Source of the DNA: a virus
Taxonomy: Duplodnaviria; Heunggongvirae; Uroviricota; Caudoviricetes
Virus record (IMG/VR): IMGVR_UViG_2547132415_000017
Coordinates: 1-6,970 of that record
Length of the DNA stretch: 6,970 nucleotides
Reading direction: 5' to 3' (one strand)
Below the pieces are notes generated by a model. The model saw only the letters and a program-made list of their open reading frames with translations. It ran no database searches and was not told the origin of the DNA. Both the position numbers and the translations under genes were made by a program. Positions 1 to 6,970 of the stretch are shown here, one piece after another. Each line of letters starts with the position of its first letter. Position 1 is the stretch's first letter.

Positions 1-1
1 G

Positions 2-2503
2 GTGGCGCGTAACGCGTCCGCGGTGGCACAGAACACGGCAGCCGCGAAGAAGTCAGCCGGCGATGCCAGCACATCAGCCCGTGAGGCGGCAACCCATGCG
101 ACTGATGCTGCAGGCTCAGCACGCGCAGCCAGCACGTCAGCCGGACAGGCCGCGTCGTCGGCTCAGTCAGCGTCTTCCAGCGCAGGAACGGCATCAGCAA
201 AGGCCACTGAAGCATCAAAAAGTGCTGCCGCTGCAGAGTCCTCAAAAAGCGCGGCGGCCACCAGTGCCGGTGCCGCGAAAACGTCTGAAACGAATGCTGC
301 AGCGTCACAACAATCAGCAGCCACTTCTGCATCCACCGCGACCACGAAAGCGTCAGAAGCTGCCACCTCAGCCCGGGATGCGTCGGCTTCAAAAGAGGCG
401 GCAAAATCATCAGAAACGAACGCATCATCAAGCGCCAGCAGCGCAGCTTCCTCGGCAACGGCGGCAGCAAATTCTGCGAAGGCGGCAAAAACGTCCGAGA
501 CGAACGTTAAGTCTTCTGAAACGGCAGCGGGACAGAGTGCCTCAGCTGCGGCAGGCTCAAAAACAGCGGCTGCATCATCTGCCAGTGCCGCGTCAACAAG
601 TGCCGGGCAGGCCTCAGCCAGTGCCACTGCCGCCGGAAAATCGGCAGAAAGCGCTGCATTGTCCGCTTCAACAGCCACAACGAAGGCTGGCGAAGCCGCT
701 GAACAGGCCAGCGCAGCAGCGAGGTCAGCTTCCGCAGCGAAGACATCCGAAACGAACGCGAAAGCGTCGGAAACCAGCGCAGAATCCTCAAAAACGGCTG
801 CCGCATCGTCAGCCAGTTCGGCGTCGTCATCGGCCTCATCGGCGTCTGCTTCAAAAGATGAGGCGACCAGACAAGCGTCAGCAGCGAAGGGCAGCGCCAC
901 GACGGCATCCACGAAGGCAACAGAGGCTGCTGGCAGTGCGACGGCGGCATCTCAGAGCAAAGTTGCTGCTGAATCCGCGGCAACGCGTGCCGAAACAGCG
1001 GCAAAACGGGCAGAGGATATTGCTGATGCCGTATCTCTGGAAGATGCGAGTACGACGAAAAAAGGTGTGGTTCAGCTCAGTAGCGCCACTAACAGCCCGT
1101 CTGAAACGCTGGCTGCGACACCAAAAGCGGTTAAGGCGGTAATGGATGAAACGAACAAGAAAGCGCCCTTAAATAGTCCTGCACTGACCGGAACGCCAAC
1201 AACGCCAACTGCGCCAAAAGGTACTAATAATACTCAGATCGCAAGTACGGCTTATGTGATGGCCGCGATTGCCGCCCTTGTAGACTCGTCGCCTGACGCA
1301 CTGAATACGCTGAACGAGTTAGCGGCGGCGCTGGGCAACGACCCGAATTTTGCGACCACCATGACTAACGCGCTTGCGGGTAAGCAACCGAAAGATGCCA
1401 CCCTGACGGCGCTGGCCGGGCTTGCTACTGCGGCAGACAGGTTTCCGTATTTTACGGGGAATGATGTCGCCAGCCTGGCAACCCTGACAAAAGTCGGGCG
1501 GGATATTCTTGCGAAATCGACCGTTGCTGCCGTTATCGAATACCTCGGTTTACAGGAAACGGTAAATCAGGCTTCTGGCGCATTACAGAAAAACCAGAAC
1601 GGCGCAGATATTCCGGGAAAAGATACCTTCACCAAAAACATTGGTGCCTGCCGCGCATATAGCGCATGGCTGAATATTGGTGGCGATAGTCAGGTCTGGA
1701 CAACTGCGCAATTTATTTCGTGGCTGGAGAGTCAGGGGGCATTTAACCATCCTTACTGGATGTGCAAAGGCTCATGGGCTTATGCAAATAATAAGGTTAT
1801 TACAGATACAGGTTGCGGAAATATTTGTCTTGCAGGTGCTGTGGTGGAAGTTATTGGCACTCGCGGCGCAATGACCATACGCGTTACTACGCCGAGCACG
1901 TCCAGCGGTGGCGGAATTACTAACGCTCAATTCACTTATATTAATCATGGTGATGCTTACGCTCCTGGCTGGCGACGAGACTACAACACGAAAAACCAGC
2001 AGCCTGCATTTGCTTTAGGGCAAACAGGACGCAGGGTCGCAAATGATAAAGCTGTTGGCTGGAACTGGAATAGCGGTGTTTATGATGCAGATATCAGTGG
2101 TGCATCGACATTAATCCTCCACTTCAATATGAATGCGGGGAGTTGCCCTGCTGTACAGTTCCGCGTGAATTACAGGAACGGCGGTATTTTTTATCGTTCA
2201 GCGCGTGATGGTTATGGCTTTGAAGCTAACTGGTCAGAGTTTTACACCACAACACGCAAACCCTCTGCGGGGGATGTTGGTGCATATACGCAGGCAGAAT
2301 GTAACTCAAGGTTTATTACAGGTATTCGCCTTGGCGGTCTGTCATCTGTTCAGACATGGAAAGGCCCCGGCTGGTCTGACAGGTCAGGTTATGTCGTTAC
2401 GGGTTCAGTTAACGGAAACCGTGATGAATTAATTGATACAACTCAGGCAAGGCCAATTCAGTATTGCATTAATGGGACGTGGTATAACGCGGGGAGTATT
2501 TAA
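2..2503 (+). CDS. Phage side tail-fibre protein (Stf-like), 5'-partial; constant part 2..~1545, variable receptor-binding C-terminal cassette ~1546..2503
   Basis: ORF open from the window edge (833 codons). The N-terminal ~330 aa are Ala/Ser/Thr-rich with a recurring AAK(T/S)SETNA motif. A fibre-type segment follows (KKGVVQLSSATNSPSETLAATPKAVKAV...). The C-terminus ...RPIQYCINGTWYNAGSI parallels the C-terminus of the opposite-strand cassette (...FRPIQKYINGTWYNVVQV). The ORF crosses the left crossover site in frame (VIEYLGLQETVN). Stop TAA at 2501-2503. Confidence 0.9.
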   Translation: MARNASAVAQNTAAAKKSAGDASTSAREAATHATDAAGSARAASTSAGQAASSAQSASSSAGTASAKATEASKSAAAAESSKSAAATSAGAAKTSETNAAASQQSAATSASTATTKASEAATSARDASASKEAAKSSETNASSSASSAASSATAAANSAKAAKTSETNVKSSETAAGQSASAAAGSKTAAASSASAASTSAGQASASATAAGKSAESAALSASTATTKAGEAAEQASAAARSASAAKTSETNAKASETSAESSKTAAASSASSASSSASSASASKDEATRQASAAKGSATTASTKATEAAGSATAASQSKVAAESAATRAETAAKRAEDIADAVSLEDASTTKKGVVQLSSATNSPSETLAATPKAVKAVMDETNKKAPLNSPALTGTPTTPTAPKGTNNTQIASTAYVMAAIAALVDSSPDALNTLNELAAALGNDPNFATTMTNALAGKQPKDATLTALAGLATAADRFPYFTGNDVASLATLTKVGRDILAKSTVAAVIEYLGLQETVNQASGALQKNQNGADIPGKDTFTKNIGACRAYSAWLNIGGDSQVWTTAQFISWLESQGAFNHPYWMCKGSWAYANNKVITDTGCGNICLAGAVVEVIGTRGAMTIRVTTPSTSSGGGITNAQFTYINHGDAYAPGWRRDYNTKNQQPAFALGQTGRRVANDKAVGWNWNSGVYDADISGASTLILHFNMNAGSCPAVQFRVNYRNGGIFYRSARDGYGFEANWSEFYTTTRKPSAGDVGAYTQAECNSRFITGIRLGGLSSVQTWKGPGWSDRSGYVVTGSVNGNRDELIDTTQARPIQYCINGTWYNAGSI
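1533..1566. repeat. Left inversion crossover site (gix/pix/hix-like), embedded in frame in the tail-fibre ORF
   Basis: ttatcgaatacctcggtttacaggaaacggtaaa; its reverse complement matches 4578-4611 at 32 of 34 positions. The 26-bp core TTATCGAATACCTCGGTTTACAGGAA resembles serine-invertase crossover sites as I recall them. Central dinucleotide TC here versus GA at the right site. Confidence 0.85.
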
Positions 2504-2505
2504 CG

Positions 2506-3039
2506 ATGATGCACTTAAAAAACATTACTGCTGGCAACCCTAAAACAAAAGAGCAATACCAGCTAACAAAGCAATTTAACATCAAATGGCTTTATTCAGA
2601 TGATGGAAAAAACTGGTATGAGGAACAAAAGAATTTCCAGCTAGACACTTTGAAAATGGTCTATGACCATAACGGCGTTATTATTTGTATTGAAAAGGAT
2701 GTTTCAGCAATTAATCCAGAGGGTGCAAGCGTCGTTGAATTACCTGATATTACAGCAAATCGCCGGGCTGATATTTCGGGGAAATGGATGTTCAAAGATG
2801 GCGTAGTGATAAAGCGAACTTATACCGAGGAAGAGCAGAGGCAACAAGCGGAAAATGAAAAGCAAAGCCTGTTGCAACTTGTCAGGGATAAAACCCAGCT
2901 ATGGGACTCACAGCTACGGCTGGGCATCATTTCCGACGAGAATAAACAAAAATTAACCGAGTGGATGCTCTATGCGCAGAAAGTCGAATCTACAGACACT
3001 TCCGGCCTGCCAGTAACGTTTCCCGAACAACCAGAATGA
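2506..3039 (+). CDS. Tail-fibre assembly protein (Tfa family), cognate to the expressed fibre cassette
   Basis: 177-aa ORF with ATG 2 nt after the fibre stop (TAACGATG) and GGGGAG 9-14 nt upstream. The N-terminal ~110 aa are closely similar to the opposite-strand paralogue ([22 protein letters not shown]...DGKNWYEE...PDITANR...SGKWMF), with divergent C-termini. Stop TGA at 3037-3039. Confidence 0.88.
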   Translation: MMHLKNITAGNPKTKEQYQLTKQFNIKWLYSDDGKNWYEEQKNFQLDTLKMVYDHNGVIICIEKDVSAINPEGASVVELPDITANRRADISGKWMFKDGVVIKRTYTEEEQRQQAENEKQSLLQLVRDKTQLWDSQLRLGIISDENKQKLTEWMLYAQKVESTDTSGLPVTFPEQPE

Positions 3040-3043
3040 GAGA

Positions 3044-3061
3044 AGGCCCGCTATCGGGCCT
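3044..3061. terminator. Bidirectional hairpin between the convergent tail-fibre assembly genes
   Basis: AGGCCCG-ctat-CGGGCCT (7-bp GC-rich stem, 4-nt loop), followed by TTAATTTTT on the plus strand and flanked by T-rich sequence on the minus strand. Sits in the 28-bp gap between the stops of the two Tfa genes. Confidence 0.6.
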
Positions 3062-3067
3062 TAATTT

Positions 3068-3595
3068 TTACTCTGGTTTTTGTGGCCATTCAGGATTTGC
3101 CGTATCCACACGGCTGACCAGAACACTGTAGCGTTCCCATGCTTCCAGTCGTGTGCGTTCCTCGTCTGTTGCCATATTCAGCCTGACAGCGCGTTCCAGC
3201 GGTTGGATGACTGATTCAGCTTCGGAAAGCAATGCGGCCTTTTGTGATTCGGCCTGTTGTTGTTGCTCGTCTGCCGTATAAATCCGTTTAACCACAGCTC
3301 CGTCCCTAAACATCCACTTACCGGAATCATCAGCGCAGCGGTTGGCTGTAATATCTGGAACCTCAACGACGCTATAACCTTCAGGGTTAAGCGTGGAGGC
3401 ATCTTTGGTGATGGCGACAATAATATTATTTGCATCGTAAACAATCTTTATTGTGTCTGGCTGAAAGTTTTTCACTTCCTCATACCAGTTTTTTCCGTCT
3501 TCGGACCATAACCAGATAACATCAAAATTCTTTGTTAGCTGATATTGTTCTTTTGTTTTTGGATTTCCAGACTTAATATTTTTTAAATGCTGCAT
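3068..3595 (-). CDS. Tail-fibre assembly protein (Tfa family), alternative copy for the silent cassette
   Basis: 175-aa ORF on the minus strand, paralogous to 2506..3039. Its ATG lies 3 nt after the stop of the upstream minus-strand fibre cassette, mirroring the plus-strand arrangement. Confidence 0.88.
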
Positions 3596-3598
3596 AAA

Positions 3599-4603
3599 TT
3601 ACACCTGTACGACGTTATACCATGTGCCATTGATGTATTTTTGTATTGGTCTGAATACTGCCGGATCATCGCCATCAACTGCACCGATAATGCCAAGCCC
3701 CGTAATTGCATGACCTGATTTCTCATACATCACGCCTTTTTGCATAGTCTGAACAACACGTGTACCAAGTCGGACATCTCTCACATAACGTGAGTCAAAA
3801 TTACCATAATTGCCGGGAATAACTTGCGCACCGCAAAGCCAGTTGCCATTGTTGTCCATGTACGCCTGACCATCGGTGCCATTGGCTGTCCTTGAGTTAT
3901 TAATCATGTAGATGCCAAATTGCTTATTCCCCAGTCCACCAATCATAAATTTGCGATCAGCGTGGTCCTGACGAAGTAATGCCTGCGCACCATCGGTGGA
4001 TACCGCATTGCGTCCCAAAATAACATTCTGGTCACGCATATGAATCCACATGCCGGTACTACTGTTAATTGCAAAACGGTTTGCAAATATATCCCCTGTA
4101 ACATCAAGACCATGCCCCATGCTTATCCGACCAGTTCTGAGATTAAGCGTAAAGGGGCGTAGTGGCCCTATATCACCATTTTCTCCCTCATTCTCTCGTG
4201 TAGGGATGATATGCAGGCATTCTTCAGAACGACGAAAAATAGCACCAAAAGATGAATTAAATATCCTCAGTGCATTGACTGTCGATATTTTTACTTCACT
4301 GCTGAAAAGGGCTTTAACAAGGACAGACAAAGCATCCCATTTAAGAGTCATCAGGTCTTTTGTTGTGGTGCTCTGGCGGCTTCTCCATTTGAAATATTCA
4401 TTGCCGTTGTCGCCTGTTTCAAACCACATGTATGAATCAGTGTCGCTGTCGGCATTATTTTTAAAACCAATCTTTGCCCAGTCAGTATTTCTAATCCAGG
4501 CAAGGATTGAGTCGTTTTCAAAAGTAAGCCCACCGGACAAGGTATCGCCATTCTTTTGCACGGCGTTCCTGGCCCTGTTTACCGTTTCCTGTAAACCGAG
4601 GTT
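3599..4603 (-). CDS. Silent alternative tail-fibre C-terminal cassette (Sv'-like); no own start or promoter, expressed only after inversion fuses it to the constant fibre region
   Basis: Minus-strand frame is open for about 334 codons from directly after an in-frame TAA (4604-4606) through the right crossover site (N-LGLQETVN-RARNAVQKNGDTLSGG...) to a stop at 3599-3601. The early sequence parallels the plus cassette (QETVNQASGALQKNQNG...). The C-terminus ...FRPIQKYINGTWYNVVQV parallels ...RPIQYCINGTWYNAGSI. The M at 4561 in the ORF track is a GTG and is probably not a real start. Confidence 0.8.
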   Translation of the reverse strand, partial: NLGLQETVNRARNAVQKNGDTLSGGLTFENDSILAWIRNTDWAKIGFKNNADSDTDSYMWFETGDNGNEYFKWRSRQSTTTKDLMTLKWDALSVLVKALFSSEVKISTVNALRIFNSSFGAIFRRSEECLHIIPTRENEGENGDIGPLRPFTLNLRTGRISMGHGLDVTGDIFANRFAINSSTGMWIHMRDQNVILGRNAVSTDGAQALLRQDHADRKFMIGGLGNKQFGIYMINNSRTANGTDGQAYMDNNGNWLCGAQVIPGNYGNFDSRYVRDVRLGTRVVQTMQKGVMYEKSGHAITGLGIIGAVDGDDPAVFRPIQKYINGTWYNVVQV

Positions 4604-4611
4604 TTAGATAA
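4578..4611. repeat. Right inversion crossover site (gix/pix/hix-like)
   Basis: tttaccgtttcctgtaaaccgaggttttagataa; core TTCCTGTAAACCGAGGTTTTAGATAA. Inverted copy of 1533-1566 with 2 mismatches. Lies about 55 bp upstream of the invertase start. Confidence 0.85.
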
Positions 4612-4665
4612 TGGCGGTTTCTGGCCTGCATGGCATGATTTGTGCTTTTGGACGGGAGATTCAGC

Positions 4666-4860
4666 GTGCTGATTGGCTATGTAAGGGTATCAACAAATGA
4701 CCAGAATACAGACCTGCAACGAAACGCTCTTGTTTGTGCAGGATGTGAACAAATATTTGAAGATAAATTAAGCGGAATAAGGACAGGCCGACCTGGATTA
4801 AAACGTGCTTTAAAGCGCCTTCAAAAAGGTGACGCACTGGTTGTCTGGAAACTGGACTGA
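4666..4860 (+). pseudogene. pin: Serine DNA invertase (Pin/Gin/Cin/Hin family), truncated: 64 intact N-terminal codons then TGA; a degenerate 3' remainder continues to about 4995
   Basis: GTG at 4666 preceded by GGGAGA (4654-4659). Product VLIGYVRVSTNDQNTDLQRNALVCAGCEQIFEDKLSGIRTGRPGLKRALKRLQKGDALVVWKLD matches the conserved invertase N-terminus, including the catalytic-serine motif YVRVSTNDQ. Stop TGA at 4858-4860 sits where intact invertases have Arg (WKLD-RLGRS...). The next in-frame codons ([12 protein letters not shown]) still weakly resemble LGRSMKHLISLV, after which no frame resembles an invertase. A full-length gene of about 190 codons would not fit before the convergent gene ending at 5066. 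Confidence 0.8.
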
Positions 4861-5003
4861 CTGGGTCACTGTATGCGGCATCTTGTCGTGCTGGTGGTGG
4901 AAGCCTGGAAGAAGTATCGGGTGTTGCTGAACCGTGTTAATACAACAACTGCACCGGATATTGAATGGCCAACAGGACCCATTATCGAATAGTGCATTAC
5001 GAA

Positions 5004-5036
5004 CTGCAGGATATTATATGGGATAATATTCTGCAG
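5004..5036. terminator. AT-rich palindromic hairpin between the invertase remnant and the 3' end of the GGDEF gene (possible bidirectional terminator)
   Basis: ctgcagGatattat-atggg-ataatattctgcag: 14-bp stem with one mismatch and a 5-nt loop, followed by TTTATTGGGGCTGTATTTT on the plus strand. Confidence 0.4.
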
Positions 5037-5065
5037 TTTATTGGGGCTGTATTTTAAAAAGGTGT

Positions 5066-6397
5066 TTATTTTGAGTGAGTTATCACCTTGTTTTTTCCGG
5101 TTCTTTTGGCTTGATATAACGCTTTATCGGCATTGACTAACATTTCAGATGGACTGAGATTATTCTCTTTTGAAGTAAAGCAACCAATACTGACAGTTAT
5201 TTTCTCAGGTCCATGCGATAATAATTTTTCCGAGCATTGCTCTTCAATGTTTTTTCTGATTCGCTCTGCAATTGATAGCAAGAGCTTTTGAGTATTACCT
5301 TTAATGATAATACCGAACTCCTCACCGCCTAAGCGCCCTAATATATCCTCTTTCCTGATGGATTTTTTTATTATTCTGGTAACCATTACTATGACTTGAT
5401 CACCCATATGATGCCCCCATTTGTCATTGATGCTTTTGAAATTGTCAATATCTAACATTATTACTGAGAAATCATGGTGTTTTGATATATTCTTCAATGA
5501 GTCAATAAAGTATCTTCTATTGTATGTATTCGTTAGTGGATCATGAATTGCCATATGATTAGCATGATTTAATTTCCTGAAAACATAATACATGAGTGTT
5601 GAAATGATATAAATCATTGATATCAATTCAAGAAATTTTGTCATGTACCATGCAGGATGGGATTTATCAATAAAATACAATAAAATTAGATTATTGCATA
5701 CTGACACTATACTAATAAGTATTATACACAACCATATTTTTGAGTAATTACGTATGCTGATGCATGAGCTGATAAGTAATACAAGCCAAAATACTGATAT
5801 TATTTTGGTGTACACGATATTCCACGTCGGCAAATGACGATTCAGCGAGTATTGTATAATATTAAGACTATATTTTATATTGTCACTGCTTAGATTTTTT
5901 GCTACAAACGGAGTAATAAAAAGAATTAATATTGACAAAACAACAATTATTATGTTTCTTTTATCTTCTAAAACACTTTTGTTTTTAACATTGGTGGAAT
6001 AAACAGCCAGAAAGATTATAGATATAAAGCTGAACTGACGGAATAGATAATATATTGCGATATCATTTGATTTCTGATAGATTGTAGATAAATCGTTACC
6101 TAACGGAGATAAAGAAATAATAGCCACTTCTAATAAATAATACGTGTTGCTCAAAAACGCGAATGAAAGAATTAAGAGATAACTTTGTCTCTGATTAGAA
6201 ACATAGTAAAGCAATAGAAAAATAAAAATCATCAGGTTTATGAAAAAAAGCCCAATAATGAAAACACTATAACTTATTTGTGTTGTTTGTGTTATGTATA
6301 TTCCATTATTTGCATGCAGTAACAAAAATATAATAGAGATGCATGAAAATAAAAAGATGAAGATTTTTATTTTTATAGGTACCTGGTTGATAATCAT
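5066..6397 (-). CDS. Membrane-anchored GGDEF-domain diguanylate cyclase: about 8 predicted TM helices (MASE-type sensor region, possibly YcdT/DgcT-like) plus a C-terminal GGDEF domain
   Basis: 443-aa ORF. The N-terminal ~275 aa are strongly hydrophobic, with about 8 stretches of 19-25 residues. The C-terminal domain has canonical GGDEF-domain motifs: DPLTNTYNRRYF, IMLDIDNFKSINDKWGHHMGDQVI, and RLGGEEFGII (GGEEF encoded at 5315-5329). An RxxD motif (RKED) sits 5 residues upstream of GGEEF. Also ADKALYQAKRTGKNKV. ATG at 6397-6395 with AGGTG 7-11 nt upstream. Very AT-rich. Family assignment of the N-terminal domain is from architecture only and is unverified. Confidence 0.88.
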   Translation of the reverse strand: MIINQVPIKIKIFIFLFSCISIIFLLLHANNGIYITQTTQISYSVFIIGLFFINLMIFIFLLLYYVSNQRQSYLLILSFAFLSNTYYLLEVAIISLSPLGNDLSTIYQKSNDIAIYYLFRQFSFISIIFLAVYSTNVKNKSVLEDKRNIIIVVLSILILFITPFVAKNLSSDNIKYSLNIIQYSLNRHLPTWNIVYTKIISVFWLVLLISSCISIRNYSKIWLCIILISIVSVCNNLILLYFIDKSHPAWYMTKFLELISMIYIISTLMYYVFRKLNHANHMAIHDPLTNTYNRRYFIDSLKNISKHHDFSVIMLDIDNFKSINDKWGHHMGDQVIVMVTRIIKKSIRKEDILGRLGGEEFGIIIKGNTQKLLLSIAERIRKNIEEQCSEKLLSHGPEKITVSIGCFTSKENNLSPSEMLVNADKALYQAKRTGKNKVITHSK

Positions 6398-6655
6398 GTA
6401 CGCACCTGAGAATGATATATATATAATATGTATCGCTACAAATAACGATAATTTCTTACTGGTGATAGTATACTATTATTCTGGTTAATCGCTGTCAAAT
6501 TGATGATTTTGGTTAGTATTGCAATAGCGAAGAGTTTGATCCGGTAAGACTGGCTAGGCAAGGCTATACCAAAAAATCAGTGTAGGTTCAGAAAATGATG
6601 CACCATACAATCATCAATAATTTCAAATTGTCCATTGTGCATAAATCATAAAGAA

Positions 6656-6692
6656 AACCGCAGCACGTCGTATGCAAGAACGTGCTGCGGTT
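6656..6692 (-). terminator. Rho-independent-type terminator hairpin oriented for minus-strand transcription
   Basis: Perfect 12-bp stem aaccgcagcacg / cgtgctgcggtt (6656-6667 and 6681-6692) with a 13-nt loop. On the minus strand it is followed by TTTCTTTATGATTTAT; on the plus strand the following sequence is not T-rich. Confidence 0.5.
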
Positions 6693-6878
6693 GGCTGGTG
6701 AACTTTCGATAGTGCGAGTATTGAATGATTTCCAGCTGTTGCCGATTTTACTATGTTTTCAGTAGAACACTTAGACAAAACTGAGGCACACAAATCTTTG
6801 CACTGGATTGCAAGGCTTTGTGCTTCTCTGGAGTGCGACATGTTTGATAACAAAAAATTAGCGCAAGAAGACAAAAAT

Positions 6879-6970
6879 TAGACTGGCCCCCTGAATCTCC
6901 AGACAACCAATATCACTTAAATAAGTGATAGTCTTAATACTAGTTTTTAGACTAGTCATTGGAGAGCAGA
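6879..6970 (+). mobile_element. IS2 insertion sequence, left terminal inverted repeat and leader (partial; continues beyond the window)
   Basis: TAGACTGGCCCCCTGAATCTCCAGACAACCAATATCACTTAAATAAGTGATAGTCTTAATACTAGTTTTTAGACTAGTCATTGGAGA... matches the IS2 left end as I recall it, the region just upstream of the transposase orfA start. Recognised from memory, not by search. Confidence 0.8.

Follow-up and report, generated by a model that had tools for sequence, protein, structure and literature searches.

Does an AT-rich block that carries a GGDEF-domain gene at one end of a lambdoid prophage belong to the phage, or is it chromosomal DNA that lies beside the attachment (att) site? We addressed this question for a stretch of 6,970 nucleotides from a tailed phage (Caudoviricetes; IMG/VR record IMGVR_UViG_2547132415_000017, positions 1 to 6,970), which is called the window throughout. 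A preliminary description made from the sequence had pointed to a sharp compositional break, beyond which an AT-rich island with a foreign-looking GGDEF gene abuts the prophage end, either as separately acquired cargo or as a chromosomal islet. We found that the block (approximately positions 4993-6647) holds a single gene, on the minus strand at 5066-6397, which is dgcX, an already described diguanylate cyclase gene of Escherichia coli that the preliminary description had not recognised. The block is very probably a phage moron that adds dgcX as the final gene to a lambda-type prophage at attB, inserted between the tail-fibre/tfa module and the hairpin hp2, sib/tI, P arm and core of attR.

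Base composition and identity of the gene

Analyses of windowed G+C (guanine plus cytosine) content and of codon usage, both named beforehand as checks, each gave a shift. In steps of 200 bp the G+C fraction was 0.58-0.675 in the first kb and about 0.32-0.53 across 1500-5000, dropped from 0.485 (4801-5000) to 0.34 (5001-5200), stayed at 0.245-0.365 until about 6500 and reached about 0.40 across 6500-6900. Recursive maximum-likelihood segmentation of bases 1-6878 by G+C yielded three segments of 59.6%, 45.3% and 31.9%, with change points at base 1502 (log-likelihood ratio 42.8) and at base 4980 (log-likelihood ratio 89.5). The latter, a step from about 45% to about 30%, lies by the stop codon (4990-4992) of a remnant of the tail-fibre-assembly gene tfa and a hairpin at 5001-5039. 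This break is real and far beyond chance, and it sits where it had been placed, after an invertase remnant and at a palindrome, although the coordinates given then for the palindrome (5004-5036) cover only the inner part of its stem. The span proposed for the block, 4861-6640, likewise agrees with the insert mapped here. By-eye values of about 70% and 28% G+C for two sampled lines were exact (70.0% for bases 1-60 and 28.3% for 5701-5760), but the contrast between them is not one step and merges the two independent steps. The first change point coincides with the left crossover site (1529-1566) of an invertible fibre segment described below. In a syntenic locus of 42 kb the 1300-bp window over the GGDEF gene was the G+C minimum (0.289, z = -5.3), and the next-lowest such window had 0.413.

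A low G+C content could merely follow from the residues (Ile, Leu, Phe, Asn, Lys and Tyr) in which this polytopic membrane protein abounds, with no foreign signature. The gene has 29.8% G+C, codon positions 1 and 2 are very low too (30.6% and 27.5%), and the core paralogue dgcT (38.6%) is itself under the genome average, as such an effect would have it. However, G+C at third codon positions (GC3) was 31.3%, compared to 58.9% in 19 flanking host genes and 60.5% in 17 prophage late genes, and the shift is therefore not merely an amino-acid effect. The synonymous-codon log-likelihood under host usage was -1.34, about two standard deviations (s.d.) below the host mean of -1.11 (s.d. 0.12), the 250 bp of non-coding DNA upstream are AT-rich as well, and the gene is demonstrably accessory, being present in 771 of 5426 complete E. 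coli genomes (14.2%; full-length in 767). We give the amino-acid explanation practically no chance of being correct. The foreign appearance noted earlier holds for composition, which deviates from both prophage and host; that it is foreign to an enterobacterial host by origin is shown by no homologue.

The gene encodes a predicted membrane diguanylate cyclase of 443 amino acids (aa), with a MASE4 sensor domain at residues 40-274 (Pfam PF17158, E = 7.4e-36, profile positions 4-237 of 239) and a full-length GGDEF domain at residues 283-437 (Pfam PF00990, E = 9.6e-45, profile positions 1-161 of 161). The A-site GGEEF occupies residues 357-361 and the I-site RKED (RxxD) residues 348-351, five residues upstream, which is the spacing published for DgcX (PMC4287979). 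Residues E359 and E360 match the positions of the published catalytic mutants E359A and E360A (PMC10459773). Over 1332 nt the window gene was 99.6% identical to those of E. coli 55989 and O104:H4 2011C-3493. NCBIfam contains no model specific to DgcX, and generic GGDEF matches were the only ones obtained. By the MASE4 and GGDEF domains, the motif positions and the identity to strains in which dgcX was named, the gene is dgcX. The feature is thus real, ordinary and already known, and the identity of dgcX accounts fully for the compositional anomaly.

dgcX was described in 2014 by Richter et al. (PMC4287979) and studied again by Cimdins-Ahne et al. in 2023 (PMC10459773). In these two studies it was recorded from enteroaggregative/Shiga toxin-producing E. 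coli O104:H4, from 55989 and from enterotoxigenic E. coli H10407, E24377A, with a prevalence of 9 in 61 genomes and a restriction to Escherichia (PMC4287979, PMC10459773). Its own promoter is active by lacZ fusion, both sigma-70 and sigma-S drive it, its reporter expression was the highest among E. coli diguanylate cyclase genes, and it was the most strongly expressed gene of this kind in the 2011 O104:H4 outbreak lineage (PMC4287979). Overexpression increased cellulose and repressed motility, effects that GGAAF and GGEAF mutants lose, and synthesis of cyclic di-GMP (c-di-GMP) by DgcX has been published via these mutant phenotypes (PMC10459773). The window protein would accordingly be an inner-membrane MASE4 sensor protein with a catalytically intact GGDEF domain, and the c-di-GMP it makes would raise cellulose and matrix and lower motility.

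Position of dgcX within the prophage

The window stops in an IS2 element before attR, and no lambda att core was found in it with up to 3 mismatches; the att sites were mapped in the syntenic genomes of strains C2 and 55989. Strain C2 is 99.4% identical to the window over 1-6878, and its gene order runs from the lambda-type head and tail genes through J, lom, stf, tfa, an inverted tfa/stf pair, the invertase remnant, the tfa remnant and dgcX to 745 bp that precede ybhB and bioA. The 15-bp lambda core GCTTTTTTATACTAA occurred once in this locus (L001, position 22178), 640 bp beyond the dgcX start codon and beside ybhB, with a P arm before it (89% identical to lambda) and the bacterial B' arm after it. 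At the other end attL (BOP'; core and P' arm) adjoins int-xis and ybhC. Since the P arm and core of attR lie beyond dgcX, and attL lies beside int and ybhC, dgcX is the last gene inside a lambda-type prophage of about 47 kb at attB (ybhC/ybhB). Strain 55989 has the same arrangement with dgcX inside the prophage; for C2 and 55989 together, the distance from the start codon to the P arm and core was also put at about 780 bp. In all, 585 genomes showed a contiguous order of tfa remnant, dgcX, attR and ybhB.

This map bears directly on the proposal that the AT-rich block belongs to the chromosome, as an islet beside the attachment site that is independent of the prophage. Such an islet would agree with dgcX being the nearest gene to the host gene ybhB on that side, and attR itself lies outside the window, but in the syntenic genomes the att core and P arm separate dgcX from ybhB. 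Moreover, 3493 genomes have an uninterrupted ybhC-attB-ybhB junction, which leaves no room for the gene and hence lacks dgcX there, and a tfa remnant always accompanies the same cassette where it recurs, at Rac and at argW. The attR position itself refutes an islet, which we consider very improbable, and the block does not abut the prophage end as first described but lies within it. The comparison of genomes with and without the prophage that had been suggested gave the corresponding result: dgcX was absent at the lambda attB wherever the site was empty, and it is not a core gene.

The sister phages HK97 and HK106 define what has been added. In both, about 125 bp without any gene lead from the tfa stop codon to hp2, sib and attP, and homology to them resumes at window position 6648, which sets the AT-rich insert at about 4993-6647. 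Absence from sister phages, a position within the att boundaries of syntenic genomes and a deviant composition are all properties of a moron, and separately acquired cargo, one of the two alternatives first considered, turned out to be the correct one.

The right phage-homologous flank is a conserved lambdoid pre-attP segment at 6648-6878, 92.6% identical to HK106. It contains hp2 (6656-6692) and, at about 6850-6878, the left half of the hairpin for sib/tI retroregulation. The sib/tI element was mapped to window position 6850 onward through alignment with HK97, HK106 and lambda, and the HK97 record annotates a 'sib retroregulation site'. We had tried hp2 as the equivalent of lambda sib/tI and rejected it, as the alignment with annotated HK97 puts sib/tI further right. 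Between dgcX and the core, the sib/tI and P-arm sequence matches lambda, HK97 and HK106 at 89-97% identity. Within the loop of the sib/tI hairpin, the sequence of the window gives way to the left end of IS2 (6879-6970, plus strand, 98.9% identical to IS2 of strain YJ6), where strain C2 is uninterrupted. No complete genome in the collection had IS2 at exactly the 6879 site; the element has landed in the sib hairpin of the window strain.

The C2 prophage carries other likely morons, namely an ompC-like porin gene between Q and the lysis genes and a block of emrE and a ybcK recombinase gene (L017, 8669-9751 and 13187-15301). The emrE and ybcK block is the G+C minimum (0.361) of that half of the prophage.

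Distribution of the dgcX cassette

The whole 6.9-kb window was common to only 22 genomes, and the tail-fibre module to the left of dgcX is thus variable. Common to different contexts was a cassette of about 1.8 kb (window 4898/4903 to 6694/6759) that consists of the tfa 3' end, the hairpin hp1, dgcX, its upstream region and hp2. At the Rac locus this cassette was 99.3% identical and ended about 230 bp inside the annotated Rac boundary, and in an island between argW and dsdC it was 89.8% identical (94.2% for the gene) in about 86 genomes.

More distant relatives, like the closer ones, were encountered at prophage ends: those with 51-94% identity all lay there, at four other integration sites. 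A relative with 85% protein identity stands between torS and torT beside the full-length tfa of a prophage whose tail genes include those for baseplate J and a sheath initiator, and the sib/P-arm flank is common to it at 97%. A 67% relative (L007, 1571-9714; GCA_013817505.1, CP057162.1) is followed by a C-terminal integrase remnant and tRNA-Arg(TCT)/argU. This gene lies directly downstream of an operon like nfrB-nfrA-ybcH, the c-di-GMP-dependent exopolysaccharide system that phage N4 needs. We considered this locus as a clean ancestral chromosomal one and rejected it, since the integrase remnant and tRNA-Arg(TCT) point to a decayed argU prophage; the adjacency to nfr may merely reflect the DLP12/argU attachment site. 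A 51% relative was located at the right end of Rac between duplicated copies of the 195-bp Rac terminus. In that genome (L009, 6600-9630) the two copies of about 195 bp are direct and include the ttcC edge, and the gene looks like the residue of a second, tandem prophage at the Rac site of which only the cyclase end survives. Homologues with at least 51% identity were all from Escherichia and those with 41-43% from Citrobacter. dgcX and the 51-94% relatives have 29-31% G+C each, compared to the 38.6% of dgcT.

The original description of dgcX used the phrase 'hitchhike by specialized transduction' (PMC4287979). Under this explanation dgcX would be host DNA from an aberrant excision, a chromosomal flank that travels with the prophage, and an ancient event of this type at another site is conceivable as the ultimate origin of the cassette. 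After a transducing substitution at the b-region position, however, the cargo should adjoin a hybrid att, one arm of which is bacterial. Instead dgcX is separated from the core by the intact hp2, sib/tI and P arm, so that the direct signature of a hybrid att is lacking. The left flank is a phage tfa end, the cassette at the Rac locus ends within Rac, and all relatives examined, down to 51%, lay in or at a prophage remnant and none in a clean chromosomal context. Because a complete phage P arm and sib separate the cargo from the att core, the wording of specialized transduction does not fit, and we consider this origin improbable, if less so than an islet.

The flanks of the cassette, on its left a tfa 3' end and on its right the pre-attP segment, are common to many lambdoid phages. 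Judging from the shared cassette edges, homologous recombination in these flanks may move the cassette between prophage backbones, which would explain the recurrence of one 1.8-kb cassette at several integration sites and after tail-fibre modules that differ. Flanks of this kind favour spread by phage mosaic recombination and lysogeny over specialized transduction.

Hairpins and transcription of dgcX

Between the convergent tfa remnant and dgcX lies hp1 (5001-5039), a hairpin with a 17-bp stem by RNA folding (-20.9 kcal/mol on the plus strand, -15.0 kcal/mol on the minus strand), which on the plus strand is followed by UUUAUU and which is kept beside the 85% and 67% relatives. As a predicted terminator it would serve the late operon, on the plus strand, and probably dgcX too. 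The region upstream of dgcX (6398-6647, minus strand) forms the right part of the moron. Its best sigma-70-like site, with 10 of 12 matches, has a -35 element TTGACA at 6498-6493 and a -10 element TAGTAT at 6475-6470 on the minus strand, and the dgcX promoter is tentatively placed there. Beyond this region, the GC-rich hp2 (6656-6692; -24.7 kcal/mol) resembles a minus-strand terminator and is followed by UUUUCUUU. hp2 was conserved between tfa and sib in HK97, HK106, phi80 and many Shiga toxin (Stx) phages, and was absent from lambda.

In a lysogen dgcX would be transcribed from its own promoter near 6470-6498, and hp1 might terminate dgcX as well as the late operon that converges on it. The gene could be shielded by hp2 and tI from transcription that enters past int in the circular phage or past ybhB in the prophage. 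With putative terminators on both sides dgcX might act as a lysogenic-conversion gene independent of late and int transcription.

An Rfam scan of the window gave partial matches below threshold only. These were the Shigella small RNA (sRNA) CssrB at 6594-6689 on the plus strand (47.6 bits, gathering score 76) and the E. coli candidate sRNA family IS009 at 4870-4949 (48.7 bits, gathering score 117). The latter, over the junction of invertase and tfa remnant, is probably shared prophage sequence and not an RNA gene.

Several observations weigh against a phage moron. Searches of 50,697 phage records with DNA and protein found neither dgcX nor any other MASE4-GGDEF gene, only partial GGDEF-domain matches below 60% identity and DNA matches to the pre-attP segment (6646-6878), and packaging of dgcX in virions was never seen in this collection. 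Many carriers may be defective prophages, and the prophage of strain C2 has a frameshifted tail gene. The position inside the prophage is read from genomes such as C2 and not from the source strain. The homologues do not point to a donor of the AT-rich DNA. Finally, the terminator function of hp1 and hp2 is predicted from their folds, the minus-strand side of hp1 has no U-tract, and promoter-like sites in the upstream region were not more numerous than in shuffled sequences.

A possible shared cargo slot

Genes of the dgcX type were found on backbones of several kinds: lambda-like at attB, at the Rac site, at argW, at argU, and the baseplate-J type at torS/torT. The gene was convergent with tfa in every case where a tfa gene or remnant survives, and the alleles, each of about 30% G+C, range from 51 to 100% in identity. 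DgcX-type MASE4 cyclases might therefore occupy a dedicated slot as last gene before attR that varied temperate Escherichia phages keep for their own benefit, a notion that we consider unlikely on balance. Such a benefit may consist, for example, in protection of the lysogen against superinfecting phages through a c-di-GMP-driven matrix or through loss of motility; alternatively, the gene may merely hitch-hike. There is an odd contrast between the presence of dgcX in 14% of E. coli genomes and in 0 of 50,697 phage records.

The literature already describes dgcX as an accessory determinant of virulence and biofilm, and the known facts about the gene remain unchanged. The only value added here is cartographic, in that dgcX is placed inside the att boundaries, in a 1.65-kb slot between tfa and the hp2/sib/attP block. 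The diverged alleles in the same slot of other prophage types make a selective role on the phage side testable.

The tail-fibre module to the left of dgcX

Most of the window is taken up by a tail-fibre module. A side tail fibre gene whose 5' end lies beyond the window (2-2503, plus strand; an open reading frame for which the annotation of strains C2 and YJ6 reads 'prophage tail fiber N-terminal domain-containing protein') has a constant part to about 1528 that is Ala/Ser-rich with about 60% G+C, and a variable C-terminal part within an invertible segment. It is followed by a tfa gene in the expressed orientation (2506-3039, plus strand; Pfam Caudo_TAP, E = 1.7e-35). In the silent orientation, on the minus strand, lie an alternative tfa (3068-3595; Caudo_TAP, E = 7.3e-38) and an alternative tail-fibre C-terminal cassette (3599-4561; Pfam Gp34_trimer, E = 4.5e-11; RefSeq 'phage tail protein, missing N-terminus'). 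The left crossover site (1529-1566) and the right one (4578-4615) form an inverted repeat of 38 nt, 92% complementary, with 3011 nt between the arms. The segment between them (1567-4577) is a 3-kb invertible segment of the G/P type with two fibre C-termini and two tfa genes; the flanking repeats contain TTCCTGTAAACCGAGGTTTT and are gix/pix-like.

To its right follows a dead serine invertase of the Pin/Gin type (4642-4897, plus strand), which matched the Pfam Resolvase N-terminal domain over positions 2-73 of 145 only (E = 5.4e-18). Its open reading frame (4642-4860) is ended after 72 codons by TGA at 4858-4860, where Pin has an Arg codon, and an in-frame invertase-like reading continues to about 4897 (about codon 85), where it is fused to the tfa 3' end. 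With the invertase doubly dead, the invertible segment is frozen unless the invertase of another prophage acts in trans. Strain YJ6 has an IS2 inside the invertase remnant. The tfa 3' remnant (4894-4992, plus strand; Caudo_TAP positions 104-130 of 131, E = 5.8e-11; a RefSeq pseudogene) comprises about 33 codons, is the phage-homologous left flank of the cassette and accompanied dgcX in every context examined. In the window an invertible fibre module of the Pin type has taken the place of the original stf-tfa, and its invertase, no longer functional, is joined to what is left of the tfa 3' end.

Comparison with known systems

Compared with dgcX of 55989 and O104:H4, the window carries the same gene (443 aa, MASE4 and GGDEF, GGEEF, RxxD) at the same locus, the lambda attB between ybhC and ybhB beside lambdoid tail-fibre genes, and the prevalence found here (771 of 5426) is like the published one (9 of 61). 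The differences concern the surroundings. In 55989 a full-length tfa precedes dgcX, whereas in the window an invertible fibre module with a dead invertase does, and only the last 33 or so tfa codons are left; the window further differs in the IS2 in the sib hairpin upstream of dgcX. The papers on dgcX place it 'adjacent to' prophage DNA, whereas our att mapping places it inside the prophage.

The core E. coli K-12 paralogues DgcT (YcdT) and CdgI (YeaI) share the MASE4 and GGDEF architecture at about 37% identity to DgcX (a cluster of 989 members at 37% is presumed, but not verified, to be DgcT). The G+C content of dgcT is low too, but that of dgcX is about 9 points lower, and dgcT is a fixed chromosomal gene beside pgaABCD, while dgcX is mobile and phage-borne. 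dgcT is weakly expressed (PMC4287979).

Morons offer a further comparison, beyond diguanylate cyclases. The concept reportedly goes back to Juhala and Hendrix and their comparison of HK97 and HK022. Known examples are lom and bor of lambda, and the central DNA segment of lambda is low in G+C. Unlike known morons, dgcX is in no sequenced free phage of our collection, and its cargo is a c-di-GMP synthase where known morons encode surface or exclusion proteins. Like the morons and the b region of lambda, it is an extra gene of deviant composition between elements that are adjacent in sister phages. A flanking hairpin that may be a terminator, and an own promoter whose position is predicted, would be further likenesses. 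Tail fibre genes and attP bound its slot, which is a non-essential region, and the lambda DNA to the left of attP has 36.9% G+C.

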